Source: a virus
Lineage: Duplodnaviria > Heunggongvirae > Uroviricota > Caudoviricetes
DNA length: 37,261 nt
Reading direction: 5' to 3' (one strand)
Virus record (IMG/VR): IMGVR_UViG_2711768064_000001
Location: 1 to 37,261 of that record
Below the pieces are notes generated by a model. That model saw only the letters and a program-made list of their open reading frames with translations, ran no database searches and was not told where the DNA came from. Made by a program: the position numbers and the translations under genes. Positions 4,040 to 37,261 of this stretch are shown here, in pieces. Each line of letters begins with the position of its first letter. Positions within the stretch are counted from its first letter, which is position 1.

Positions 4040-4043
4040 AGTA

Positions 4044-8953: not shown

Positions 8954-9949
8954 GTGACCGTGAGAGCACTACTGACCCCTGAAATTGCCCCGCGTATGGG
9001 GATCGTATTGTTCAGACCAGGTTCAGAGTTGATGCCCCTGTTTATGCAGGGGCGTGTCCTGCTGGAGCCTGAGCCGGAACGTTATTCATCTTTCGCCAGT
9101 GGTGCCGTTCCGGCAGCATCACAACCGCTGGCGGATGATCCTGCCGTTCGGGCCGTGTTCCGCAATGAGGCAGTGATCCGTCGTGCTGGTGGCGTGGAAT
9201 GTCTTGAAAGCTGGTTACTTCGTGAAAAGGGCTGTCAGTGGCCTCATTCCAACTGGCACAGCGAGAACATGACCACAATGCGACACGCTCCGGGCGCAAT
9301 CCGTCTGTGCTGGCACTGCGATAACCAGCTGCGCGATCAGTTCACGGAACGGCTGGAATCAATGGCAACGGATAACTGTGCCCGCTGGGTGTTATCTGTT
9401 GTGCGCCGTGATCTCGGTTTTGATGATAGTCACGTTGTGACAATGCCGGAACTGTGCTGGTGGCTGATTCGTAATGAACTGGCGGATGCCTTACCGGAAA
9501 GTGCAGCCCGTAAGGCACTGAGATTACCGAAGCCTGTTGTGCCGTCTGTCACCCGGGAAAGTGACCTTGTGCCTTCGATTCCTGCCACCAGCATCATCCA
9601 GGATAAAGCGAAAAAGGTGCTGGCGCTGAAAGTGGATCCGGAGTCGCCGGAGTCTTTTATGTTACGCCCAAAACGTCGCCGCTGGGTTAATGAAAAGTAC
9701 ACGCGCTGGGTTAAGACACAGCCGTGTGCATGTTGTGGAAAGCCCGCTGATGATCCCCACCACCTGATAGGCCACGGTCAGTGTGGAATGGGTACAAAAG
9801 CGCATGACCTTTTTGTGTTGCCTTTGTGCAGAAAGCATCACGACGAGCTGCATGCGGATACCGTGGCATTTGAAGAGAGGTATGGCTCCCAGCTGGAGCT
9901 GATATTTCGTTTTATCGATCGTGCGCTGGCAATTGGCGTGCTGGCCTGA
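8954..9949 (+). CDS. DUF968 family protein (YdfU-like)
   Basis: GTG start; C-terminal Cys/His-rich segment CACCGKPADDPHHLIGHGQCG...CRKHHDELH. Confidence 0.6.
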   Translation: MTVRALLTPEIAPRMGIVLFRPGSELMPLFMQGRVLLEPEPERYSSFASGAVPAASQPLADDPAVRAVFRNEAVIRRAGGVECLESWLLREKGCQWPHSNWHSENMTTMRHAPGAIRLCWHCDNQLRDQFTERLESMATDNCARWVLSVVRRDLGFDDSHVVTMPELCWWLIRNELADALPESAARKALRLPKPVVPSVTRESDLVPSIPATSIIQDKAKKVLALKVDPESPESFMLRPKRRRWVNEKYTRWVKTQPCACCGKPADDPHHLIGHGQCGMGTKAHDLFVLPLCRKHHDELHADTVAFEERYGSQLELIFRFIDRALAIGVLA

Positions 9950-9966
9950 TTTTGTGGAGAAAGTTG

Positions 9967-10341
9967 ATGCGTGATATTCAAATGGTTCTGGATCGTTGGG
10001 GAGCATGGGCGGCGAGTGATAGTTCAGGAGTAGACTATTCTCCTATAGCTGCTGGGTTTAAAGGGCTTCTTCCCTATACAAGCAAAACACGTCAGGCTTG
10101 TTCAGATAGTGATGCATTAATTATTGAAGGTTGTCTTGCTCTTCTTAAAAAGCGAAAACCGTACGAGCATTCTTTGATTGTGGCCCATTACCTGTATGGC
10201 ATCTCGAAAAGAAAGCTTGCAAGAGCTCGCAAAAAAGATGAGAAATTGATACGTATTGAAATGCAGATGGCTGAAGGGTTCATCGATGGTTGCCTTTCTA
10301 TGCTAGACATAACACTAGATATGGATGTTGAGATAAGTTAA
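9967..10341 (+). CDS. Late-gene antiterminator Q (Phage_antitermQ family)
   Basis: Start MRDIQMVLDRWGAWAA with GGAG RBS; located upstream of lysis genes. Confidence 0.7.
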   Translation: MRDIQMVLDRWGAWAASDSSGVDYSPIAAGFKGLLPYTSKTRQACSDSDALIIEGCLALLKKRKPYEHSLIVAHYLYGISKRKLARARKKDEKLIRIEMQMAEGFIDGCLSMLDITLDMDVEIS

Positions 10342-10415
10342 TTTATGCTCTGAAGTGTATACCCATGATGAGACTATATTTGTATCATGGGTATTCATAT
10401 ATACAGGAGGGTAAT

Positions 10416-11264
10416 ATGTCAAATAGGATATTTGATGCACTATACCGTGAGAAAATAGATATTTTTAAAAATTCTTTTTCCGCAACTTCAACTGAAGTTT
10501 TTTATGATCCTGAAAACAATCGTCTTATTCATGCTGGTGAATATGGAATATATCGTGAGTCGGTAGTAAGGGATTTTTTGAACTTTATAGTTCCTCAGCG
10601 ACTTGCTATATCTAATGGTTTTTTAATGTCCGCGATGGATGACATTAGCACGCAGTGTGATGTTGTTATTTTTGATTCTAAAATGACACCACTTTTTCAA
10701 GGTGGAGATAAACATAGGTTTTTCCCAATTGAATCTGTTTACTGCATTGGTGAGGTTAAGTCAAATTTATCTCGCGCTGCTTTTCGAGACGCCATTAACA
10801 AACTGGCGAAAAATAAAGCAATCGCCGAGAGAATAAAAAACCCTTCATTAAGTTTTAACTCTAGCAGTTTTAACTTTGATCCGGAAAACAACCCTTTTCA
10901 TGTTTATTCTAGCATATTGATCTGTAAGAAGCTTGATTTTGATATAAGCAATATAGAAAATGAACTAGATAATCTTTACTCTGATGAAATACAATTTAGG
11001 CATAGGCATAACCTAATCCTTAGTATCGAAGATGGGCTTCTTGCCTATTCAGCCCCGGATGGAGTGAAACTTCCATTCCCGATGCTTCGCCAGCAAAACT
11101 TTAAAAGTTGCTTCTTGACTCCAAAAGATGATGAATATTTCCACATGAAGTTTTTCGGTACATTTATGTTTATGTTAACCTCTGGTAAAATTTCCTTATA
11201 TCCTGAGTTCTCCGATTATATTTCACCAGTTCAAAATGGTGGAAGTGCTAGGGTTCAACTATGA
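10416..11264 (+). CDS. AT-rich moron protein with PD-(D/E)xK-like motif; candidate nuclease / defence protein
   Basis: 282 aa; ATG 10416 with AGGAGGG RBS; motif CDVVIFD...x26...ESVYCIGEVKS; flanked by hairpin upstream and terminator downstream. Confidence 0.65.
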   Translation: MSNRIFDALYREKIDIFKNSFSATSTEVFYDPENNRLIHAGEYGIYRESVVRDFLNFIVPQRLAISNGFLMSAMDDISTQCDVVIFDSKMTPLFQGGDKHRFFPIESVYCIGEVKSNLSRAAFRDAINKLAKNKAIAERIKNPSLSFNSSSFNFDPENNPFHVYSSILICKKLDFDISNIENELDNLYSDEIQFRHRHNLILSIEDGLLAYSAPDGVKLPFPMLRQQNFKSCFLTPKDDEYFHMKFFGTFMFMLTSGKISLYPEFSDYISPVQNGGSARVQL

Positions 11265-11419
11265 ACTTATTTAAAGATTGAATATAATAATGATTCTTTA
11301 TAGATGTCGAGCTGCATCTAATCTGGTAAAAAAGAATAAGAAATCCCTAGCGCGGTCCGCAAATCTTGTTGTACTGTGTTAAGATTGGTCACTTGGACAC
11401 GTACTTAAAAGATTTTAAA

Positions 11420-11441
11420 CCTCGCTTTGGCGGGGTTTTTT
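11420..11441 (+). terminator. Rho-independent terminator
   Basis: Stem CCTCGC/GCGGGG (one G-U), loop TTTG, T-run 11436-11441. Confidence 0.55.
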
Positions 11442-11488
11442 GCTTTATGGTGGTATTCATAACAGGCACCTAAATGAAAGGAGACTCC

Positions 11489-11710
11489 ATGGGGTTTTAT
11501 TACGTTTACCAGCATAAAGAAGAAGGTTTGGAAGTTGAGAAGCATCTTGTTGTTTCAGAAGAGTATCTTGATAGAGATAGCGCTAAAATGGCAAGGTTTA
11601 AGCATAGACTCAATGATAGGGGATGTGTATTCTCAGAAATTATTGAAGCCCCATCACCGCAAGAAGTGCTTCAAAAGGTACAGCCGGAATTGATGAGCCA
11701 CTGGATATAA
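11489..11710 (+). CDS. Hypothetical small protein (73 aa) in Q-lysis moron island
   Basis: ATG 11489 preceded by AAGGAG; AT-rich; own terminator downstream. Confidence 0.45.
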   Translation: MGFYYVYQHKEEGLEVEKHLVVSEEYLDRDSAKMARFKHRLNDRGCVFSEIIEAPSPQEVLQKVQPELMSHWI

Positions 11711-11732
11711 AAAAACTAACATCCAAATGTCG

Positions 11733-11755
11733 AGGTCGCTTATGCGGCCTTTTTT
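11733..11755 (+). terminator. Rho-independent terminator
   Basis: Stem AGGTCGC/GCGGCCT, loop TTAT, T-run; same stem as the terminator at 14642. Confidence 0.6.
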
Positions 11756-11802
11756 ATTCCCCTCATTCCTGAGAGGATTCACAGCAATTAAGAGGGGGCT
11801 AA

Positions 11803-12189
11803 ATGTCCGATCCGATTTCCGGTACTGGGCTGGCTGGTGGTGTCCTGACGGGGGCCAGCGTCTATGGATTTCTGTCCGGAACCGATTACGGCGTGGTCTT
11901 TGGCGCGTTTGCCGGGGCTGTATTTTACATTGCCACCACAGCGGACCTGAGTGCAGCGCGCCGTCTGGCATATTTTCTGGTGTCGTATATTGCGGGGATC
12001 CTTTGTTCCGGGCTGGTGGGTTCAAAGCTGGCTCAGGTTACTGGCTACAGTGATAAACCACTGGATGCCATTGGTGCCGTAATCGTTTCTGCTTTAGCCG
12101 TCAAAATCCTGACGTTCCTGAATAATCAGGATGTTGGCTCGCTGGTGGCGCTGATAACGCGCCGGGGAGGTTCAGGTGGTACTAAATGA
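11803..12189 (+). CDS. Holin
   Basis: 128 aa with three hydrophobic segments, first gene of lysis cassette. Confidence 0.7.
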   Translation: MSDPISGTGLAGGVLTGASVYGFLSGTDYGVVFGAFAGAVFYIATTADLSAARRLAYFLVSYIAGILCSGLVGSKLAQVTGYSDKPLDAIGAVIVSALAVKILTFLNNQDVGSLVALITRRGGSGGTK

Positions 12190-12457
12190 CCCATCGGCAA
12201 CTATCAATGCGTTACTCTGCGCTGGGGTAGTGCTGACCCTGATGTTTTACCGTCGCGGCGATTCGCGACATCGACCGTGGATATCTCGCTTAGCTTGGCT
12301 GCTTACGGTCATTTATAGCGCCGTACCGCTGGCGTATCTGTGCGGTATCTACCCTTATTCATCTTGGGCCACTATCGGGGCCAACATTATTTTCCTGTCT
12401 GTGCTTGTCGCCGTCAGAGGCAACGTAGCGCGGCTGGTTGATCATCTGAGGCACTAA
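12176..12457 (+). CDS. Second holin-like / antiholin-like membrane protein
   Basis: 93 aa, two hydrophobic segments, between holin and endolysin. Confidence 0.5.
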   Translation: MVLNDPSATINALLCAGVVLTLMFYRRGDSRHRPWISRLAWLLTVIYSAVPLAYLCGIYPYSSWATIGANIIFLSVLVAVRGNVARLVDHLRH

Positions 12458-12999
12458 TGACTAAAGACGATATCTTCAATGCCATCCTTGGCAAAGAGGG
12501 CGGCTATGTTAACCATCCCGACGATAAAGGCGGCCCAACGAATTGGGGTATCACTCAGGCAACGGCGCGGGCACATGGGTATGTAGGAGATATGCGCGAT
12601 CTCACCCGCCAGCAGGCGCTGGATATTCTGACGGCTGACTACTGGACAGGCCCGCGATTCGACCTTATTTCTGAGGTGTCACCAGCCATCGCCGCTGAAC
12701 TCTGCGACACGGGCGTAAACATGGGGCCATCGGTTCAGACCAAGTGGTTTCAGCGCTGGCTGAACGTGTTCAACATTCAGGGCACGCTCTATCCCGAACT
12801 GATTGCGGATGGTTTTATAGGTCCGCGAACTGTTAGTGCGCTAAAAAGTTACCTATCTCGACGCGGGAAAGAAGGAGAGCTGGTAATGCTCCGGGCTCTG
12901 AATTGCAGCCAGGGTCAACGTTATCTTGAACTGGCAGAACAGCGCAGCGCGAACGAGACGTTTGTTTATGGCTGGGTAAAGGAGCGGGTGGTTATATGA
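12457..12999 (+). CDS. Endolysin, glycoside hydrolase family 108 with peptidoglycan-binding domain
   Basis: N-terminal GGYVNHPDDKGGPTNWGIT motif typical of GH108 lysozymes. Confidence 0.85.
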   Translation: MTKDDIFNAILGKEGGYVNHPDDKGGPTNWGITQATARAHGYVGDMRDLTRQQALDILTADYWTGPRFDLISEVSPAIAAELCDTGVNMGPSVQTKWFQRWLNVFNIQGTLYPELIADGFIGPRTVSALKSYLSRRGKEGELVMLRALNCSQGQRYLELAEQRSANETFVYGWVKERVVI

Positions 13000-13265
13000 C
13001 GCTTGAGATGATTATCGGACTCCTTGCAGCTGTTTTAGCTGCTATAGCCGCCGCATTTGGATTAGGCCATTCGCGCGGCACCAGCAAAGCCGAAGCGAAA
13101 GCCAACCAGCAACGCACCGAAGAAAAGGCCGCTGCCACTGAAGCAGTGGCTGAACGCCGGGTAGAGACAACAAAAGGAGCCAGGGGTGTACAGCAGACTG
13201 TTAATCATCTTCCTGATGACGATGTTGACCGTGAGTTGCGCGAAAACTTTACCCGCAAAACCTGA
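12996..13265 (+). CDS. i-spanin (Rz-like)
   Basis: N-terminal TM segment, charged periplasmic region, position after endolysin. Confidence 0.65.
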   Translation: MTLEMIIGLLAAVLAAIAAAFGLGHSRGTSKAEAKANQQRTEEKAAATEAVAERRVETTKGARGVQQTVNHLPDDDVDRELRENFTRKT

Positions 13266-13401
13266 ATTAACGGACACAGCCTGTGACTGGGTGGACATTA
13301 TCTACCTCACTGAACACGATATTGCCGTGCTGGATAAGCAGACGAAGCGGGACATATTGGTGCACAATAAATCAGTGCAGGCTAACTGTGCAAAAAAATA
13401 A
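13186..13401 (+). CDS. o-spanin lipoprotein (Rz1-like), nested/overlapping with i-spanin
   Basis: Signal peptide with lipobox LTVSC; overlapping out-of-frame with i-spanin 3' end. Confidence 0.65.
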   Translation: MYSRLLIIFLMTMLTVSCAKTLPAKPELTDTACDWVDIIYLTEHDIAVLDKQTKRDILVHNKSVQANCAKK

Positions 13402-13508
13402 ATTGAAAATGAGAAATGAAAGTAGTAAATATGTGCCAAGCTGTGATGAAACCAGCAATGAAGCACGTTCATTAATCCGCATTCTCTGAAAAAGAGAAAG
13501 AATTATAA

Positions 13509-13535
13509 GCCTCGGTTTAATACCGGGGCTTTTTT
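13509..13535 (+). terminator. Rho-independent terminator after lysis cassette
   Basis: Stem GCCTCGG/CCGGGGC (one G-U), loop TTTAATA, T-run. Confidence 0.55.
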
Positions 13536-13686
13536 GTATCTGCATTTCACCGCGCACCGCAGCGCATTCAATCACGTCGAACCCAACCTTTTGGAATGAG
13601 CCTTTGAGGAGTTAGTTAGTGCTGGCGAGCCTCGACGGGCTGATCTCCTATGCGGCAAAGGTTCATCTCAAAGTAAGGTATACGCT

Positions 13687-14241
13687 ATGAACTACCCAAC
13701 AGTTGTTAACGGCATCGATTTCCGAGACCTGATTTTTGTAGCAAACAACGATCCGGTTACCGATTCGTTTATGGTGGCGAAAGCATTCGGTAAGCTGTCG
13801 AAAAACGTAGTTCGCGATATTGAACGGACCATAGACGCTTGCCCACCAGAGTTTGATACAAAGCTCAACTTTGAGCTTTGCTATAGAAACAATGAGTTAC
13901 AGAATGGAAAACCGCAGAAATTCTACCGACTCCGCAAGGATGGATTGATGCTTCTTGTCATGTCTTACACCAAGAAAGAAGCCATGCGGATCAAAATTGC
14001 TTACATCAATGCTTTCAATTGGATGTACGCGATGCTTCAAGTTGGCTGGCGTCAGTTTGAAGAAGAACGAAATGCAGTAATGCTGGAGTTCATGAAGGAG
14101 AAGGATGTGGCCAGTATGTCAGGCCGTCTTCTGAATCGTTGGGGTAGGGTGAAGAAGCCCGTCCTACTTGCGAAGATTGAGAGACTCGAAAAGCAAGGAC
14201 AGATCCCACTTCTCGGATTAACCAAAGCACTCACCGAATAA
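13687..14241 (+). CDS. Rha family phage regulatory protein
   Basis: N-terminal DSFMVAKAFGK...NVVRDIER matches Rha (Phage_pRha) signature. Confidence 0.7.
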   Translation: MNYPTVVNGIDFRDLIFVANNDPVTDSFMVAKAFGKLSKNVVRDIERTIDACPPEFDTKLNFELCYRNNELQNGKPQKFYRLRKDGLMLLVMSYTKKEAMRIKIAYINAFNWMYAMLQVGWRQFEEERNAVMLEFMKEKDVASMSGRLLNRWGRVKKPVLLAKIERLEKQGQIPLLGLTKALTE

Positions 14242-14370
14242 AGGTTTCCATGAGCAGCCTTTTTTGTACCCATTACAAAGCTCATCTGCGGGTGGGCTTG
14301 ATAATGGGTATTGAATGTAAAAATACGTCAGACATAATGATACATCCTTATTGCTGACGGAAAATTGTAA

Positions 14371-14622
14371 ATGTCTGATAACTTTGATTTCGATGATGAA
14401 CGTAAACAGCTTGAGCACTTGAGTGATGAAGAGTTGGAGCAGGTAGCTAGGGATTACGATCTTCTTCCTGAAGGGGTATCTCTTGAAGATAAGTCTGTAG
14501 AATTTGTTGATGGCCTTATAGGTGAGATTATAGAGGCTAAGGCTTACCATGATTCACAAGATGCAGAATGGAACGAACAACAAGATATCATGGAAGAGCA
14601 AAGGCGTGATGCAGACTACTGA
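14371..14622 (+). CDS. Highly acidic small protein (83 aa); DNA-mimic / anti-restriction candidate
   Basis: 28 of 83 residues are D/E by manual count; AT-rich; own terminator. Confidence 0.5.
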   Translation: MSDNFDFDDERKQLEHLSDEELEQVARDYDLLPEGVSLEDKSVEFVDGLIGEIIEAKAYHDSQDAEWNEQQDIMEEQRRDADY

Positions 14623-14641
14623 TTACGCATAATGTTAAACA

Positions 14642-14663
14642 AGGTCGCCAATGCGGCCTTTTT
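14642..14663 (+). terminator. Rho-independent terminator
   Basis: Stem AGGTCGC/GCGGCCT, loop CAAT, T-run. Confidence 0.6.
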
Positions 14664-14820
14664 CGACCGCCGTGAACCATCCGGTTATTGCGCGGCATGA
14701 TGTGTTGCAACTTGACGACTAGCGGCATTACAGCAGGCATTCACTGAGTGTCTGAGATAATGCTGTGATATCCTCAAACATGACGTTTCTTACTTAAAAA
14801 CATAAAGTTGAGGTTTTTAA

Positions 14821-15207
14821 ATGGATTTAGTAACAGTTACTACAAAAGAGCAACTAAAGAAAGCGAAAGAAGATAAGGTAGATGTCATCGTTGTAGAAGG
14901 CGAGCTTGCTGAAAAGCTGAAGCGAAGTAAGAAAGTTGCTATTGCAGCTGCAGGGGTTAGCGGTGTCGCTCTGACAGGTTTGATTGCTGCAATTGCTGCT
15001 GCACCTGCTACAGGTGGCACCTCATTTTTGCTCTATGCTGGTGTCGCAGGAACATCTGCTGCGACCTTTACTGGAATTGAAATTGCCTCAATAATCCTGG
15101 CAGGTTCAATTGGGATTACTCTTCTCGTGGGGATTTTTAAAGATTATGAAGAAATTGAAGCGTCTACATCTGGTGGAATAAAATTAAAACGAAAACAAAA
15201 AGATTAG
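14821..15207 (+). CDS. Small membrane protein with Gly/Ala-rich (glycine-zipper-like) hydrophobic domain
   Basis: 128 aa; soluble charged N-terminus then AIAAAGVSGVALTGLIAAIAAAPATGG...GIEIASIILAGSIGITLLVGIF. Confidence 0.5.
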   Translation: MDLVTVTTKEQLKKAKEDKVDVIVVEGELAEKLKRSKKVAIAAAGVSGVALTGLIAAIAAAPATGGTSFLLYAGVAGTSAATFTGIEIASIILAGSIGITLLVGIFKDYEEIEASTSGGIKLKRKQKD

Positions 15208-15243
15208 AATGAAATAGGCGTTTGCCTGACACTTTATCCCTAA

Positions 15244-15271
15244 GCCACTGGCATCCGCTGGTGGCTTTTTT
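15244..15271 (+). terminator. Rho-independent terminator
   Basis: Stem GCCAC/GTGGC with extended pairing, followed by TTTTTT. Confidence 0.5.
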
Positions 15272-25304: not shown

Positions 25305-25722
25305 TGAAAGAGCTTGAGTTAAAGAAACCGATTATCGCTCATGGTGAGACACTCTCCGTACTGGAGTTTGATGAACCCACCGGGAAGGATGTCCGCGAGC
25401 TGGGGTATCCCTACCAGATGAATCAGGATGAGTCCGTCAGACTTCTGGCGCATGTGGTGTCGAAATACATTGTGCGGCTGGCGAAAGTGCCGCAAAGCTC
25501 TGTCGACCAGATGTCTCCGGCAGACCTGAATGCAGCGGCGTGGCTTGTGGCCGGTTTTTTCCTCCAGGCCTGACGGCTGAATACCTCACTGATCGCTTCT
25601 TTGACTGCGCCAGTTACTGGCGCATTAATCCCTTCGAATTGCTGAATATGCCGATCAGTGAAATTCCCTTGCTGGTCAGTCAGGCAAACAGGATAGAGCA
25701 GGAGAAACGCACACATGGCTGA
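25304..25722 (+). CDS. Tail assembly chaperone with -1 programmed-frameshift extension
   Basis: Short form ends 25573; slippery heptamer TTTTTTC at 25555-25561 allows -1 shift into ORF ending 25722. Confidence 0.6.
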
Positions 25723-27550
25723 ATTTGAGCTTAAGGCGTTGATCACCGGTGTCGACAGGCTTTCTCCCGCGCTGTCGAAAATGCAAAAGAAAATCCGGGG
25801 ATTTAAACGCCAGGCGGAAGAAGCGTCACAGGGTGGGCTGGCGCTTGGTGGCGGACTGGCTGCGGGTCTGACGCTTTCCCTGAAATCTTATGCCGATCAG
25901 GAAAACGCCGCCACCGGGCTGAAAGTTGCCATGATGGATGCGAACGGTGAGGTCGGAAAGAGCTTTCAGGACATCAATAAACTGGCTATTGGCCTGGGTA
26001 ACCAGCTACCCGGTACAACGGCTGATTTCCAGAACATGATGCAGATGCTGGTGCGTCAGGGGATCCCGGCAGAAAACATTCTGGGTGGTGTGGGTAAAGC
26101 GACAGCTTATCTTGCGGTACAACTGAAAAAAACACCGGAAGCGGCTGCCGAGTTTGCCGCAAAGATGCAGGATGCTACCGGAACGGCCTCAGAAGACATG
26201 ATGGGGCTGTTCGACACAATTCAGAAGGCGTTTTATCTGGGCGTTGACGACACCAACATGCTGTCATTCTTCACTAAAACCAGCTCTGTTCTGAAGATGG
26301 TGAATAAGGACGGTCTTCAGGCTGCACAGAGTCTTGCCCCCATCAGTGTCATGATGGATCAGATGGGGATGAACGGGGAGTCGGCAGGTAATGCCCTGCG
26401 AAAAGTTATCCAGTCCGGATTAAGCGTTAAGAAAATCAGGGACGTCAATAAAATCATGGCCCGCCAGAAACTCGGGGTACAGCTCGATTTTACTGATGGC
26501 AAAGGGAGTTTTGGCGGTCTTGATAACATGTTCAGGCAACTGGCAAAGCTGCGAAAACTGACCGACGTTAAGCGAACCGGTGTACTTAAGGCAATATTTG
26601 GTGATGATGCCGAAACCCTTCAGGTGGTCAATGCTCTGATCGATAAAGGAAAGGATGGTTACGATCAGATCCAGCAGAAGATGCATAAACAGGCCAGCCT
26701 GAATAAACGTGTTCAGGCACAGCTTGGTACGCTGTCCAACCTGTGGGAGGCAATGACGGGGACCGCAACTAACGGTCTTGCAGCTATTGGCGGCGCATTT
26801 TCTGGTGACGCTAAAAATATCACGCAATGGCTGGGGGAGTTGGGGGAAAAATTCACGAAGTTTGCGGATGAAAATCCCCGGGTTATTCGCGGCGTCGTCG
26901 GGCTTGCTGCCGGTCTTGCGATTCTGAAACTGGGATTGATGGGCGTGGGCAGTGCCATCAGCATTGTCAGCAGGATCATGTCGATGACGCCGATTGGCAT
27001 GATTGCGACGGCGATAGCCCTGGCTGCGGGATTAATTATCACTAACTGGGATGTTGTCGGACCTTATTTCAAGAAGCTCTGGGAAACCATTGGTCCTTAT
27101 TTTGAGGCTGGCTGGGAACTCCTTAAGAAAGTTTTTGCCTGGTCGCCGCTGGGGATGGTGATCAATAACTGGGGGCCGGTTGTTAAGTGGTTTCAGGATA
27201 TGTGGGACAAGCTGAAGCCAATTATTGAGTGGTTTACCGACAGTTCCGGAGACACGGTCGATGCCATTAACTCTGCGCAGTGGGGCGCGGGTGCTTATGA
27301 TGCTTATGGGACGGGAATACCGGCACGGGGATACACACCTTATCCGGCGGTGGATCCGGCTCAGTCAAACAACGCCTCCGATGCCACAGGCCCGAATCCC
27401 TTCATGATTAACAAAGCTTCTGCGCCAAAAGTTGATGGTGAGATCAAGGTATCTTTTGTGAATTCGCCTCCGGGGATGCGGGTTATGGAAACGCGATCCA
27501 GCGGTTTTGATATAAATCACGATGTTGGCTATACGCATATTGGCAGATGA
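25715..27550 (+). CDS. Tail tape measure protein
   Basis: 611 aa, Gly/Ala-rich repeats and TM-like segments, after chaperone. Confidence 0.85.
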   Translation: MAEFELKALITGVDRLSPALSKMQKKIRGFKRQAEEASQGGLALGGGLAAGLTLSLKSYADQENAATGLKVAMMDANGEVGKSFQDINKLAIGLGNQLPGTTADFQNMMQMLVRQGIPAENILGGVGKATAYLAVQLKKTPEAAAEFAAKMQDATGTASEDMMGLFDTIQKAFYLGVDDTNMLSFFTKTSSVLKMVNKDGLQAAQSLAPISVMMDQMGMNGESAGNALRKVIQSGLSVKKIRDVNKIMARQKLGVQLDFTDGKGSFGGLDNMFRQLAKLRKLTDVKRTGVLKAIFGDDAETLQVVNALIDKGKDGYDQIQQKMHKQASLNKRVQAQLGTLSNLWEAMTGTATNGLAAIGGAFSGDAKNITQWLGELGEKFTKFADENPRVIRGVVGLAAGLAILKLGLMGVGSAISIVSRIMSMTPIGMIATAIALAAGLIITNWDVVGPYFKKLWETIGPYFEAGWELLKKVFAWSPLGMVINNWGPVVKWFQDMWDKLKPIIEWFTDSSGDTVDAINSAQWGAGAYDAYGTGIPARGYTPYPAVDPAQSNNASDATGPNPFMINKASAPKVDGEIKVSFVNSPPGMRVMETRSSGFDINHDVGYTHIGR

Positions 27551-27566
27551 CGGAACCAGATATAAT
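27540..27566 (+). promoter_or_regulatory. Candidate sigma70 promoter for tail-module moron
   Basis: TTGGCA (27540-27545), 15-nt spacer, TATAAT (27561-27566), overlapping tape-measure stop. Confidence 0.4.
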
Positions 27567-27602
27567 TTGTCTTTAAGTTTGTTATCAACTGAAGGGAAAT
27601 CT

Positions 27603-27980
27603 ATGGGTCTGTTACATGCCATTATAGGTAATGCCGGTGAAATTAATGCATCAGATGCACAACAGGAATTAGGGGCTGTTTTAGGTGAGGGAGAAAATGT
27701 CGAACTTGCCTATAAACTCATTCGTGACCAAATTATTCTGACTAACAGAAGGTTAATTTTTATTGATAAGCAGGGTGTCACAGGGAAAAAAGTCGAGTAT
27801 CGTTCGATTCCATATAAATCTGTGACAAACTTTTCTATTGAAACCGCCGGGCATCTTGATCTTGATGCTGAAATGAAGATATGGATTTCTGGTATTGCAG
27901 AACCGATAAAAAAACAGTTCAGTAAAGGAGCAAACATTTATAAATTGCAGGCCCATCTGGCTCAAAAAATAGCAGGGTAA
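27603..27980 (+). CDS. Moron protein, bacterial PH-domain-like
   Basis: 125 aa AT-rich ORF with AAGGGA RBS; segment ILTNRRLIFIDKQGVTGKKVEYRSIPYKSV resembles bacterial PH domains. Confidence 0.55.
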   Translation: MGLLHAIIGNAGEINASDAQQELGAVLGEGENVELAYKLIRDQIILTNRRLIFIDKQGVTGKKVEYRSIPYKSVTNFSIETAGHLDLDAEMKIWISGIAEPIKKQFSKGANIYKLQAHLAQKIAG

Positions 27981-28004
27981 ACCTTACATTAATTTATGTC
28001 TTTC

Positions 28005-28028
28005 ATGCCCACTTCGGTGGGCATTTTT
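28005..28028 (+). terminator. Rho-independent terminator with UUCG tetraloop
   Basis: Perfect stem ATGCCCAC/GTGGGCAT, loop TTCG, T-run. Confidence 0.65.
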
Positions 28029-28043
28029 ATATCCGGAGTTTAT

Positions 28044-29372
28044 ATGACGTGGAAAGGCAGGCTTCAGGACGCGTCATTTCGCGGCGTGCCGTTTAAGGTC
28101 GAAGAAGAAAGTGCGGGAACAGGTCGCCGTGTGGAAACGCACGAATACCCGAACCGCGACAAACCCTATACCGAAGACCTGGGGAAAATCACTTTCCGCC
28201 CGTCCATCACGGCTTATGTGGTGGGAGATGACTGCTTTGACCAGCGTGATCGCCTGATTGAAGCGCTGAATAAACCCGGTCCCGGCACGCTTGTCCACCC
28301 GACATACGGTGAGCTGAAAGTCTGTGTTGACGGGGAAGTTCGGGTCAGCACATCGAAGAGTGAAGGGCGAATTGTCCGCTTTGACCTGAAGTTTGTCGAA
28401 GCAGGAGAACTCTATTACCCCACATCAGGCGCGGCGACGGCGCAGACGCTGATGTCATCCTGTTCTGCACTGGATGACTGCATCAGTGACAGCTTCAGCG
28501 GTTTCAGTATCGATGGTGTGGCGGATTTCGTGCAGAACGACGTTATCGGTAATGCCAGCATAATGCTGGGGTATGTTTCTGATGCGATGAAAGTGGTGGA
28601 TTCTGCCGTATCGGATGCCGCCAGGCTGTTGCAGGGGGATATCTCGGTACTTCTGCCGCCGCCATCGTCAGGCAAAAATTTCGTTGAGCAGGTGCAGAAA
28701 ATGTGGCGTACCGGGAAACGCCTTTATGGTAACGCCAGCGACCTGGTCACCATGATCAAAACGCTTTCTGGTGTCAGCCTCGGCAGCGATTTGCAACCGC
28801 GCGGCGTCTGGAAAACGGACAGTAAAACCACCGCCACAGCGACGCAGCAGCGTAACATGGTTGCCAGCACCCTTCGTACGACTGCAATCAGCGAAGCGGC
28901 GTATGCCGTTACCCGATTGCCTGCGCCAACAACTTCTGCGGTGATGCAGAATGCCGCAGTGGGGCAGTCAACAACACCCGCGCAGAGCTCCGGCTGGCCT
29001 GCCGTCACGCATCCGGTGCTGAACAATGCACCGGCGGTGAAAAACACGGTTGACCTGCCAACGTGGGAAGAACTGACCGACATTCGCGACACACTGAATA
29101 CGGCAATTGATAAGGAGTTGTCCCGTACAACCAGTGATGCGCTGTTTCTGGCGCTGCGCCGGGTGAAAGCAGATCTGAATGCGGATATCAACACGCGCCT
29201 TGAACAGTCTGCTCGGATCATTCAGCGCACGCCGGATGAGGTTTTACCCGCGCTGGTGCTGGCGGCGACCTGGTTTGATAACGCGGCGCGTGACGCGGAC
29301 ATTATCCGGCGTAATGCCATTACGCATCCCGGCTTTGTGCCGGTGATCCCTCTGAAGGTGCCAGTGCAATGA
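28044..29372 (+). CDS. DNA circularization protein (Mu gpN-like)
   Basis: Start MTWKGRLQDASFRGVPFKV after terminator; Mu-like tail gene order. Confidence 0.75.
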   Translation: MTWKGRLQDASFRGVPFKVEEESAGTGRRVETHEYPNRDKPYTEDLGKITFRPSITAYVVGDDCFDQRDRLIEALNKPGPGTLVHPTYGELKVCVDGEVRVSTSKSEGRIVRFDLKFVEAGELYYPTSGAATAQTLMSSCSALDDCISDSFSGFSIDGVADFVQNDVIGNASIMLGYVSDAMKVVDSAVSDAARLLQGDISVLLPPPSSGKNFVEQVQKMWRTGKRLYGNASDLVTMIKTLSGVSLGSDLQPRGVWKTDSKTTATATQQRNMVASTLRTTAISEAAYAVTRLPAPTTSAVMQNAAVGQSTTPAQSSGWPAVTHPVLNNAPAVKNTVDLPTWEELTDIRDTLNTAIDKELSRTTSDALFLALRRVKADLNADINTRLEQSARIIQRTPDEVLPALVLAATWFDNAARDADIIRRNAITHPGFVPVIPLKVPVQ

Positions 29373-35276: not shown

Positions 35277-35371
35277 GGCTGACACTGCTGTTCTTGATGC
35301 AAATTAAAAGATTTAATAGTGAGTAGCGGCCTTACTAATGTAAGGCCGCTATAATCATTTTATTAATTGCA

Positions 35372-37261
35372 TTAATCGTGTTTTGGCCATACTTTCAATG
35401 CAATTTCCCCCAACTTTTTACCCCGCTCCAGGATTTCATCCTCATCCCATTTATCCTTAACTATAAGTGGAATGTTCAGTCGTAGATTGGTGTGGACGAT
35501 GAGAGCATCACGTTTTTTCAGAAATACAGCATTCTGAACAGAACGGTTTACGCTAAGGTTAAGCAAAGTTAGATTTCCCAAAGTAGCTATCGCTTGTTGC
35601 CGTTTCCATACCAGTAGCTGTTCAGGGGTAAGATCGGTTCCAGACAGAACAATTTGGTTCAATACCGTAGCATCTGAATTTGTCACCATACGACCATTTT
35701 CGAGAGGCCAACAGGAATACCAACTTTGAGGCATAAGATGATCGATATCGAGATTAGAAAGATTTGGAACATCAGGCTTTTCTGTCTTCACTTGGCGACA
35801 AAGTTCTCTTTCAAGTTCCGTTAACATTGAGCGCATTTTCGGTGCGTCGAGCCTGCCAGGATAAAGTGGAGCATTGATGCAAGCGTTGAGAAATTCTGAG
35901 TCACCAGGCCAACGTGAGGCTTCGCCATTTAAGTTATTGAGGATATTACGTAACTCAACACTGGAAATTTCCGTTTTAGCCAAGTGCCGCAATACATTCA
36001 TAAATACATTGTTGTAATTCTTTGGCGTCAGGCCACATACGGCTCTTCGTACTACGTAGGAGACAAGATCATTATACATGGCTGCTTTCTCATCATCAGC
36101 GATGTTAGCTATCGAAATGAACAAAGCAAGCGGATAAAGTGTCGTCACATCATAGTCTGCGATGCGATATCCAAAGTGTGAGATGGGGGTTGTGCCAAAA
36201 CCATCAACCAGTTCTTTATATTGTAATGCATATTGTTTGAGACGCTTTACTTGCAGATCTGCTCGTTGTGAAGACAAGTCCTTACTTACATAATCACGAT
36301 ACTCATTGTAAAGGCGAGACAGATCAATTTCACGCTGCCTTTCTGATTGCAATGTCGCATGTACTAGCCACTCCATGCGTGGTTTATTAATACGTCCACG
36401 GCGTTGCTTTTCCGACCAGTATTTATCTTCAAAGCTCTTCCACTCATTTTCATATAATTCAATAGCATTAATATTTTCATGCTCAGCGCACATAAAGATA
36501 TAGTTGCGAATAAGATCCGTGGCATGAAGTTCCGCCCCTCGCCCATTTAATGTTTCAAAAATTATTTGGGCATCATCTTCAGCTTCGAGAAATATGCTTA
36601 CCAGTTTCAGATCTGTTAAGACAGCCTCAATTAGAGCTACAGCATTTTCTTGTGGTGAGTGGTTTTCTATTTTAATCCATTTTATAAAGGCTTCAGTAAA
36701 AAAACATAATGCTTCTAGTGATGGCGGGTGATTAAAATGCTTACGCAACGTACCATGCTGCGTGAAACTATCAGAGAATACGTCCCGGAGATCATCAATA
36801 TTTTCAACATTAAAACTTTGAATAAAATGAGTTTGATCCCGAAAAGTTGGCCATAGTTTGAAGCGTTCTACTTCTTTATTTCGCATTGTGTCTTCGTTTG
36901 AGTTTTTCAGGCAAGGCGAAATGAGAGCCTCTAAGCTGAAAAGATCCGTAGCACGTAATGCTAATCGGATGGATGCCAGAACATATTGAAGAGTGGCCAA
37001 TCGTTGCTGACCATCAATAATATGTATGGAATCTACACCTAATAATCCTTTTTTTGATTGAGGTTCCAGTACAACCGCACCAAGGAAATGGGGAGTTGGT
37101 TTTGTACCCGAGAGCCGGGATTGTGCTTTCTCTAGGATATCCTCCAGTAGAGCTGACCATTGGTCTTGCTGAGTCCATACATAGGCACGTTGATAGAATG
37201 GAACACAGTATTGTCGGCGGTCTTGAAAAAGTTGTTGGACAGTTAGCGTCTCGGATTTCAT
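35372..37261 (-). CDS. GmrSD-like type IV restriction protein (DUF262 N-terminal, DUF1524 C-terminal)
   Basis: N-terminal CVPFYQRAYVW...IIDGQQRL motif (DUF262); C-terminal DIDHLMPQSW motif (DUF1524/HNH-like); AT-rich; start codon at window edge. Confidence 0.8.
   Translation of the reverse strand: MKSETLTVQQLFQDRRQYCVPFYQRAYVWTQQDQWSALLEDILEKAQSRLSGTKPTPHFLGAVVLEPQSKKGLLGVDSIHIIDGQQRLATLQYVLASIRLALRATDLFSLEALISPCLKNSNEDTMRNKEVERFKLWPTFRDQTHFIQSFNVENIDDLRDVFSDSFTQHGTLRKHFNHPPSLEALCFFTEAFIKWIKIENHSPQENAVALIEAVLTDLKLVSIFLEAEDDAQIIFETLNGRGAELHATDLIRNYIFMCAEHENINAIELYENEWKSFEDKYWSEKQRRGRINKPRMEWLVHATLQSERQREIDLSRLYNEYRDYVSKDLSSQRADLQVKRLKQYALQYKELVDGFGTTPISHFGYRIADYDVTTLYPLALFISIANIADDEKAAMYNDLVSYVVRRAVCGLTPKNYNNVFMNVLRHLAKTEISSVELRNILNNLNGEASRWPGDSEFLNACINAPLYPGRLDAPKMRSMLTELERELCRQVKTEKPDVPNLSNLDIDHLMPQSWYSCWPLENGRMVTNSDATVLNQIVLSGTDLTPEQLLVWKRQQAIATLGNLTLLNLSVNRSVQNAVFLKKRDALIVHTNLRLNIPLIVKDKWDEDEILERGKKLGEIALKVWPKHD

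Follow-up and report, generated by a model that had tools for sequence, protein, structure and literature searches.

Why should a contractile-tailed phage carry, within its tail operon, a small AT-rich gene that most of its relatives lack? The question is raised by the IMG/VR virus record IMGVR_UViG_2711768064_000001, analyzed here over its whole length of 37,261 nucleotides (to be referred to as the window). An open reading frame (ORF) for 125 residues, with 38.4% GC and an ATG start (positions 27603–27980, plus strand), is located between the tail tape-measure protein (TMP) gene (25715–27550, plus strand) and the DNA-circularization, or DNA-circulation, tail gene N (Mu N-like; 28044–29372, plus strand). 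An earlier interpretation made from the letters of this DNA (the sequence-only reading) had placed the ORF correctly, and had described it as a moron that encodes a protein resembling bacterial PH-domain proteins and has its own candidate promoter and a terminator. The gene is very probably moron-type accessory cargo encoding a PHb1 protein. The best overall explanation, which we hold with moderate confidence, is that a horizontally acquired moron occupies a recurrent slot and is expressed in the lysogen, where a ring of the PHb1 protein would benefit the lysogen. The physiological role is the weakest step of this explanation.

A variable slot at the tape-measure junction

The TMP and N genes are adjacent in the Shigella phages SfV, SfI and SfII and in Escherichia coli UTI89, with a spacer of 60 nucleotides (nt), and the junction is about 433 bp shorter there. 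Among 5,426 complete E. coli genomes, the junction is found in 1,094, and the PH-domain gene in 28, always at the same position. The gene is absent from SfV, SfI, SfII, SfIV and most of the E. coli prophages that share TMP and N. Cargo frequencies were taken from a sample of 60 rows, evenly spaced down the ranking of junction matches. The junction was empty in 28 of these rows. It held a 176-residue ORF in 11, an OB-fold gene in four, the PH-domain gene in two and a 225-residue ORF in two; 12 rows were matches to gene N only and one was classified as other. Cargo-bearing junctions thus make up 19 of the 60 rows, and the small cargo genes are of at least five kinds.

The slot corresponds to positions 27551–28043 of the window, and the 3′ end of TMP to its left is homologous in empty-site and other-cargo prophages. 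Alternative cargos were seen at loci L002, L007, L008, L009, L010 and L038. At least five unrelated cargo types occur beside the PH-domain gene, two of them on the opposite strand. They include a 225-residue lipoprotein-like ORF and ORFs of 176, 170 and 162 residues with an N-terminal signal or anchor. The 170-residue ORF is from phage SKA5 and is unrelated to the 176-residue ORF by BLASTP, and the 162-residue ORF is from strain E1. The OB-fold genes (PF12869, Pfam tRNA_anti-like) run on the opposite strand and have a hairpin of bidirectional appearance adjoining the TMP stop codon; they must therefore be transcribed independently of the late operon. A PADLOC search gave no match for the other slot cargos.

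The measured cargo inserts have 31–42% GC, compared with 50–55% in their flanks. For the cargo ORF of the window, the GC fraction is 0.384 overall and 0.302 at third codon positions, while the corresponding values are 0.517 and 0.564 for TMP and 0.564 and 0.621 for gene N. Just 4.7% of the 378-nt segments across the 37-kb window are as AT-rich. By the definition in PMC3594210, after Juhala/Hendrix, the gene has three of the features of a moron, namely extra DNA between genes that are adjacent in relatives, a divergent base composition and a terminator directly 3′. The adjacency of TMP and N in relatives, the AT-rich insert and the unrelated cargos in the slot all bear out a moron in the tail operon. 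As the slot is variable and often empty, the TMP–N junction is a moron hotspot, and a protein encoded in only 28 of the roughly 1,100 E. coli genomes that have the junction cannot count as a conserved part of the virion in related phages.

The host element of this slot is an SfV/SfI/SfII-like temperate phage, with a lambdoid early region and Q antiterminator, an HK97-type head and a Mu-type contractile tail. Positions 27000–28600 show 95–96% identity to SfV, SfI, SfII and E. coli phages by megablast, and positions 15262–37261 are 99.5% identical to a PGAP-annotated prophage of E. coli GTEN_24. The gene order given by PGAP for the near-identical prophage is sheath, tube, assembly protein, TMP, 'PH domain-containing protein', DNA circularization protein and baseplate genes. 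The flanking genes are assigned from the ORF list and PGAP; gene N has a corrected start at 28044, with the ribosome-binding site (RBS) GGAG at 28036–28039.

The same coding sequence is called by RefSeq/PGAP in a genome that is 100% identical over the cargo stretch. A Shine–Dalgarno sequence, GAAGGGA (27591–27597, plus strand), is located 5–6 nt 5′ of the ATG, and its GAAGGG is unchanged in the two alleles of the cassette, A and B. Between these alleles, codon positions 1 and 2 are 94–95% identical and position 3 is 46–52% identical; this drop at the third position identifies the plus-strand frame as coding. Two minus-strand ORFs (27710–27937 and 27753–27965) were ruled out, as the substitution pattern matches the plus-strand frame. 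A longer ORF of 152 residues from the ATG at 27522 was also ruled out, as the homologues and PGAP all begin at MGLL.

Allele A is found in E. coli prophages. Allele B is that of the Edwardsiella phage EPP-1 and of Edwardsiella genomes, among them one whose tail module is otherwise E. coli-like. The proportion of synonymous differences (pS) between the alleles is 0.73–0.77, which is saturated, while that of nonsynonymous differences (pN) is 0.05–0.06 and the proteins are 89–91% identical. This combination points to long, strong purifying selection on the cargo gene. Allele B sits behind a different TMP end, yet it keeps, as non-coding DNA, a remnant of a TMP 3′ end of the allele A type, and this remnant takes in the −35/spacer/−10 block of the candidate promoter described below. 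The remnant indicates that the promoter region travelled with the gene. In an Edwardsiella-type phage contig (L022), the cargo protein shows 91% identity, compared with 67–69% for the flanking TMP and N. By these comparisons, the cassette appears to have moved as a unit between phages with divergent tail genes.

Of the 28 genomes with the PH-domain gene, four, among them E. coli EC_J_9 (L005, 2136–3289), have an IS1 that interrupts it at one shared point (query base 153). The four copies probably go back to one inherited event and amount to a knockout allele made by nature. The slot therefore presents a natural allelic series, with empty, intact and IS1-disrupted states.

Two further occurrences of the cassette were observed. 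A prophage of Edwardsiella hoshinae NBRC 105699 (L023/L040, a 42,390-bp contig) has sheath, tube, N and P proteins that are 96–99% identical to those of the window, and carries the Edwardsiella-type allele, which suggests cross-genus phage movement and cassette exchange. One cassette lies with tail genes on a 70-kb record typed as a plasmid, from E. coli TUM18781 (NZ_AP023208.1, 64416–64920). This record may be a phage-plasmid or a misassigned replicon.

The PHb1 protein and its relatives

The resemblance to bacterial PH-domain proteins noted earlier is confirmed by the profile search. The protein has a full-length match to Pfam PF08000 (bPH_1), with residues 3–122 aligned to profile positions 2–121 of 122, a score of 163.2 bits (cut-off 27.7) and E = 3.1e-48. 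A weaker match to bPH_3 overlaps it. In PHROGs the protein falls in phrog_7115, a family of unknown function. The PDB entries 3DCX (Shewanella loihica) and 3HSA (S. amazonensis) are matched at E ~ 1e-39, over residues 9–120 and 1–121, respectively. These two proteins have the same length and family as the cargo protein, but are encoded by standalone chromosomal genes of marine bacteria, whereas the cargo protein is phage-borne. The AlphaFold2 model of the monomer has a pLDDT of 83 and TM-scores of 0.82/0.87 to 3dcx_A. The best Foldseek matches are 3dcx/3hsa (TM-scores 0.79–0.87), and eukaryotic PH and FERM domains are far behind. The PDB matches, the model and Foldseek all indicate a PH-like β-sandwich capped by a C-terminal helix.

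A search of the literature on DUF1696/PF08000/bPH/YozO/YvbH/YjqA found one relevant paper, Xu et al. 2010 (PMC2817789). PHb1 is described there as a C5 pentameric ring, with a conserved, mostly acidic pocket formed by two neighboring subunits. The paper had already pointed out that PHb1 occurs in lysogeny modules of phages, and it left the function open. It also reports that B. subtilis YozO is controlled by sigma-W. In view of its close sequence similarity to two crystallized pentamers, the cargo protein is expected to form a C5 ring as well.

The key residues listed in PMC2817789 are present in the cargo protein. The buried triad of E31, T47 and R50 and the PYxx[IV] turn are retained, as are all the residues of the acidic inter-subunit pocket (D42, D55, Q57, K63, E80, T81, D86, D88, E90). 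The only changes at conserved PHb1 sites are the conservative I74V and F85L. An alignment of 35 homologues drawn from several phyla has 33 invariant positions; most of the key residues are among them, with every residue of the proposed binding site. The N-terminal segment (M1-G2...G9-N10-A11-x-E13; 27603–27641) is invariant in 35 homologues, yet has a pLDDT of 44 in the model, and this conserved motif is probably flexible.

The protein has a mass of 13.7 kDa and a pI of 8.0. Its nearest relatives beyond the E. coli and Edwardsiella phages, at 72–75% identity, are an Edaphovirga chromosomal gene and a gene on a metagenomic contig outside a tail context. The broad family, at 47–66% identity, extends over Proteobacteria, Firmicutes, Bacteroidota, Actinobacteria, Cyanobacteria and Planctomycetes.

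Relatives in other phages are located in lysogeny regions. In the Lactococcus phage ul36, cI and int flank, on the lysogeny strand, a bPH_1 gene (ORF124) whose product belongs to the same Pfam family as the cargo protein (E = 1.6e-39, ~39% identity). In phage bIL285, ORF2 encodes a PH-domain protein (bPH_3+SHOCT) in the int-adjacent slot known for lactococcal superinfection-exclusion (sie) genes. This protein is in a different Pfam family and is 27% identical to the cargo protein over 62 residues. The product of bIL285 orf2 ('sie285') is reported to have been found in lysogen proteomes (PMC6127208). Like the cargo gene, both ul36 ORF124 and bIL285 orf2 are PH-domain cargo of temperate phages. 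They are co-oriented with int and cI, and therefore lysogen-expressed by position, and they are in the lysogeny module beside the integrase, whereas the cargo gene is in the tail operon. In Gram-positive prophages, bPH_1 genes are found among helix-turn-helix regulators, integrase, antirepressor and a Schlafen/AlbA_2 protein. In a Vibrio 186-like phage, a bPH_1 gene is located between cI and int, directly upstream of a SIR2-domain gene. A two-gene system of bPH_1 and SIR2 was considered and ruled out, as four viral contigs have 46%-identical SIR2 homologues with no bPH_1 nearby.

Expression and possible role of the cargo gene

The candidate sigma-70 promoter (27540–27566, plus strand) consists of a −35 hexamer TTGGCA (27540–27545), a 15-nt spacer and a −10 hexamer TATAAT (27561–27566). 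It was found in a relaxed scan of both strands of the window, with spacers of 15–19 nt and at least 11 of 12 consensus matches, that gave two sites in the whole window, compared with 0.7 ± 0.8 in shuffles. When the 131 nt 5′ of the cargo ORF were shuffled, a site with at least 11 of 12 matches arose in only 0.8% of cases. The standard scan requires spacers of 16–18 nt and for this reason does not report the site. The final codons of TMP (..H-I-G-R-stop, with the TGA stop at 27548–27550) hold the −35 hexamer, and the −10 hexamer alone is within the inserted DNA. As judged from the sequence, the candidate promoter would be a hybrid of a resident TMP −35 and an inserted −10. The promoter overlapping the TMP stop, as described in the sequence-only reading, is thus present in its letters, but its −35 is native to TMP, its spacer is suboptimal and allele B has TATAAC. 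The −35/spacer/−10 block is 78–81% identical between the two alleles, compared with 46–52% at third codon positions; the 20 nt before the ATG are 70–75% identical and the 3′ untranslated region with the hairpin is 67–79% identical. Non-coding signals that are better conserved than silent sites fit functional constraint, although more recent recombination in the flanks may be an alternative cause.

A second near-consensus promoter, the only other one in the window (TTGACA-16-CATAAT), is found at 4040 on the minus strand, at the end of the early region.

The terminator-like hairpin (28005–28028, plus strand), found by a terminator scan and by folding, is located directly 5′ of the gene N RBS. 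Its DNA form is ATGCCCAC-TTCG-GTGGGCAT (28005–28024) followed by TTTT, and the corresponding RNA, ATGCCCAC-UUCG-GUGGGCAU with a U-run, would fold into an 8-bp GC-rich stem (−14.8 kcal/mol, z = −2.5). The equivalent at the empty site is GTCCCAC-TCCG-GTGGGAT with a T-run (−18.7 kcal/mol), present in SfII, where it is an annotated terminator, and in UTI89. A GC-rich hairpin with a T-run follows every plus-strand cargo, and its distance to the gene N RBS is constant across these cargos, except at the divergent junction of strain E1. The hairpin of the 225-residue cargo, CCCGC-TTCG-GCGGG, has a compensatory change from A-U to G-C relative to that of the window. The hairpins were folded one by one, as MAFFT aligns the longer-loop variants out of structural register. 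The UUCG hairpin that had been assigned to the moron therefore exists and folds, but as an equivalent is present at empty sites, it belongs to the TMP–N junction and not to the insert.

In the preferred explanation, the gene has been slotted between the TMP stop codon and the resident intrinsic terminator that precedes gene N. In a lysogen, modest transcription would start at the hybrid sigma-70 promoter and end at the hairpin, and the proposed stop at the hairpin would keep the baseplate genes silent. During lytic growth, the gene would also be on the Q-antiterminated late transcript, which by established lambda-Q biology would read through this internal terminator. The product would assemble as a soluble or membrane-peripheral homopentameric ring like the Shewanella homologues, and its five acidic inter-subunit pockets (D42, D55, Q57, K63, E80, D86, D88, E90) would bind a basic partner. 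The ring would benefit the lysogen instead of building virions. Its likeliest role would be at the inner face of the envelope, in interfering with a superinfecting phage or altering envelope-stress behavior. That the PHb1 ring is a lysogen-expressed factor which interferes with incoming phages or remodels the inner envelope face is, however, a tentative proposal, and we give it only a small chance of being correct.

Several known systems resemble this arrangement in part. HK97 gene 15, like the cargo gene, is a small AT-shifted extra gene beside TMP in the tail operon of a lambdoid E. coli phage, is absent from close relatives and has promoter-like and terminator-like signals. It also provides the concept of expression from a repressed prophage to the benefit of the lysogen. 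Superinfection exclusion has been demonstrated for its product gp15, an inner-membrane protein (Juhala/Hendrix; Cumby et al. 2012; PMC3594210). In comparison, the cargo protein is soluble and unrelated in sequence to gp15. Moreover, gene 15 is upstream of TMP whereas the cargo gene is downstream, and the terminator of the cargo gene, unlike that of gene 15, is also found at empty sites. JBD26 Tab is a late-operon moron that protects the lysogen; it targets the tape-measure protein and has an antidote, anti-Tab (PMC10884400). Tab, the cargo hotspots of P2/P4 (cited in PMC11364771) and the cargo gene all occupy a fixed slot between conserved structural genes where the cargo differs among phages. 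Tab differs in being on the opposite strand and in having a mapped promoter, a TMP target and a partner antidote, and the cargo protein has no sequence similarity to it.

A number of observations, given in this paragraph and the next, weigh against the preferred explanation, and some of them favor other accounts. The gene could be a passenger of the late operon with no working promoter, made only with the tail proteins in lytic growth and acting in the phage's own cycle. Possible roles would then be optional help in assembly or injection, or counter-defence by a protein that is delivered or made late. Consistent with this account, the gene runs in the direction of the tail operon and no terminator separates TMP from the ORF, so that late co-transcription alone could explain its expression, and Q antitermination would carry transcripts through the ORF and the hairpin. 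The −35 hexamer is ordinary TMP coding sequence (..I/F-G-R-stop) that is found in empty-site phages too, and a 15-nt spacer is poor for sigma-70. The Edwardsiella-type allele lacks the critical final T of the −10 (TATAAC), and purifying selection on it is equally strong. The gene is also retained by the plaque-forming Edwardsiella phage EPP-1, which was isolated by double-layer agar plating. The presence of the terminator at empty sites means that it is no evidence for an autonomous unit, and H-NS commonly silences AT-rich DNA of foreign origin in E. coli. On the other hand, the gene is missing in ~97% of the prophages with the same tail module and is therefore unneeded for assembly. Two of the alternative slot cargos are encoded on the other strand, which rules them out as late-operon passengers. 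Relatives in other phages sit in lysogeny operons, and the majority of relatives are chromosomal genes that stand alone, away from any phage context. Conservation of the promoter block exceeds that of silent sites even where the block lies outside coding sequence. We regard a late-operon passenger as possible but rather unlikely. Independent transcription in the lysogen is about an even chance, with at most a slight lean in its favor, and the 'autonomous' unit is plausible but unproven.

The lysogen-benefit step has a more specific version, in which the protein is a superinfection-exclusion or anti-phage factor, with the ring at the cytoplasmic face of the inner membrane acting against the DNA-entry machinery or the TMP of an incoming phage. 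Its analogues would be HK97 gp15, JBD26 Tab and the lactococcal Sie proteins. The cargo gene adjoins the TMP gene, as does that of HK97 gp15 (PMC3594210), and the other slot cargos are envelope-targeted small proteins typical of exclusion factors. The int-adjacent sie slot of P335 phages holds PH-domain proteins in ul36 (bPH_1) and bIL285 (bPH_3+SHOCT), but Sie activity has been demonstrated for sie309 and sie312 and not for the PH-domain sie285 (PMC6127208). The neighbor in the Vibrio phage is of a defence type (SIR2), but this adjacency is not conserved. Several PHb1 homologues were recovered in membrane or insoluble fractions, although the acidic surface of PHb1 was argued by Xu et al. to disfavor direct membrane binding (PMC2817789). 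The cargo protein has no transmembrane segment, signal peptide or lipobox, with a maximum 19-residue Kyte–Doolittle value of 0.58, and so lacks the hydrophobic N-terminus of known Sie proteins; all the other cargos have a lipobox, signal peptide or N-terminal anchor, and it is the sole soluble one. It has no match to a defence family in PADLOC-DB 2.0 at E ≤ 1 and none in NCBIfam. The standalone homologues in Edaphovirga, Photobacterium, Clostridium and three metagenomic contigs share no neighbors, and a widespread, housekeeping-like standalone gene across phyla is more in keeping with a general cellular role than with a phage-specific one. An exclusion factor in this specific form is therefore unlikely. 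Finally, the gene could be a functionless hitch-hiker, a recombination remnant that happens to be open. It is rare (28 of about 1,100 junctions), its family is without known function, and its interruption by IS1 in four of 28 copies indicates that it is dispensable for prophage maintenance. This account is effectively refuted by the substitution pattern, with saturated silent sites in genes for proteins that are 89–91% identical; it is also opposed by the 33 positions, including binding-site residues, that are invariant across several phyla and by the movement of the cassette between phages with divergent tail genes. We consider it highly improbable.

Part of this picture was already known. 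The gene is annotated in RefSeq, the architecture is textbook, and PHb1 was noted in phage lysogeny modules in 2010 (PMC2817789). Papers on the SfV family describe a moron between Q and the lysis genes, and leave the TMP–N slot unmentioned. The slot and its natural allelic series are the most useful outcomes of the analysis. Temperate phages change their hosts mainly through morons, and those found in tail operons have time and again proved to be phage-exclusion factors. The slot cargos form a short list in which new proteins for superinfection exclusion or host modification may be sought, with domain calls for the PH-domain and OB-fold members only. The cargo gene is a genetically tractable E. 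coli handle on PF08000, a family whose structure has been known since 2008–2010. If the ring does interfere with incoming phages or remodel the inner envelope face, the TMP–N junction of SfV-like prophages would be a hotspot for exclusion and defence cargo that has so far gone uncatalogued. PF08000, an orphan family of solved structure with 47–65% identity across many phyla, would also gain its first physiological function, and this function would be directly testable in E. coli with natural prophage pairs that have and lack the gene.

Other features of the phage

An Rfam search of the whole window gave no family. The Phage_antitermQ gene is located at 9952–10338 on the plus strand (Pfam PF06530, E = 5e-52). 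The Q-lysis region of the window (9945–15262) is wholly different from that of the GTEN_24 prophage, which is otherwise 99.5% identical. In the window it contains antitermQ, DUF6602, two holins, a GH108 endolysin and a Rha-like protein, while the GTEN_24 prophage has another antiterminator, a lambda-type holin and an iss (bor-like) gene. The difference looks like a mosaic module exchange. The DUF6602 ORF (10365–11261, plus strand, 299 residues) is in a low-GC stretch (10021–11758) between the Q antiterminator and the holin genes, the classic lambdoid moron site, where Stx phages carry toxin genes.

A DUF262 protein of 628 residues is encoded at the end of the prophage (35372–37258, minus strand), in a low-GC region. 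It has a full-length PADLOC match of 1,404 bits to 'Type IV methyl-directed restriction enzyme'. This defence gene is at a position where SfV-type phages carry their serotype-conversion genes. Of the terminator-like hairpins in that part of the window which was scanned, the strongest (35323–35352, plus strand), with a 13-bp stem that includes seven GC pairs, is placed between the tail-fibre/invertase-remnant region and this restriction gene.

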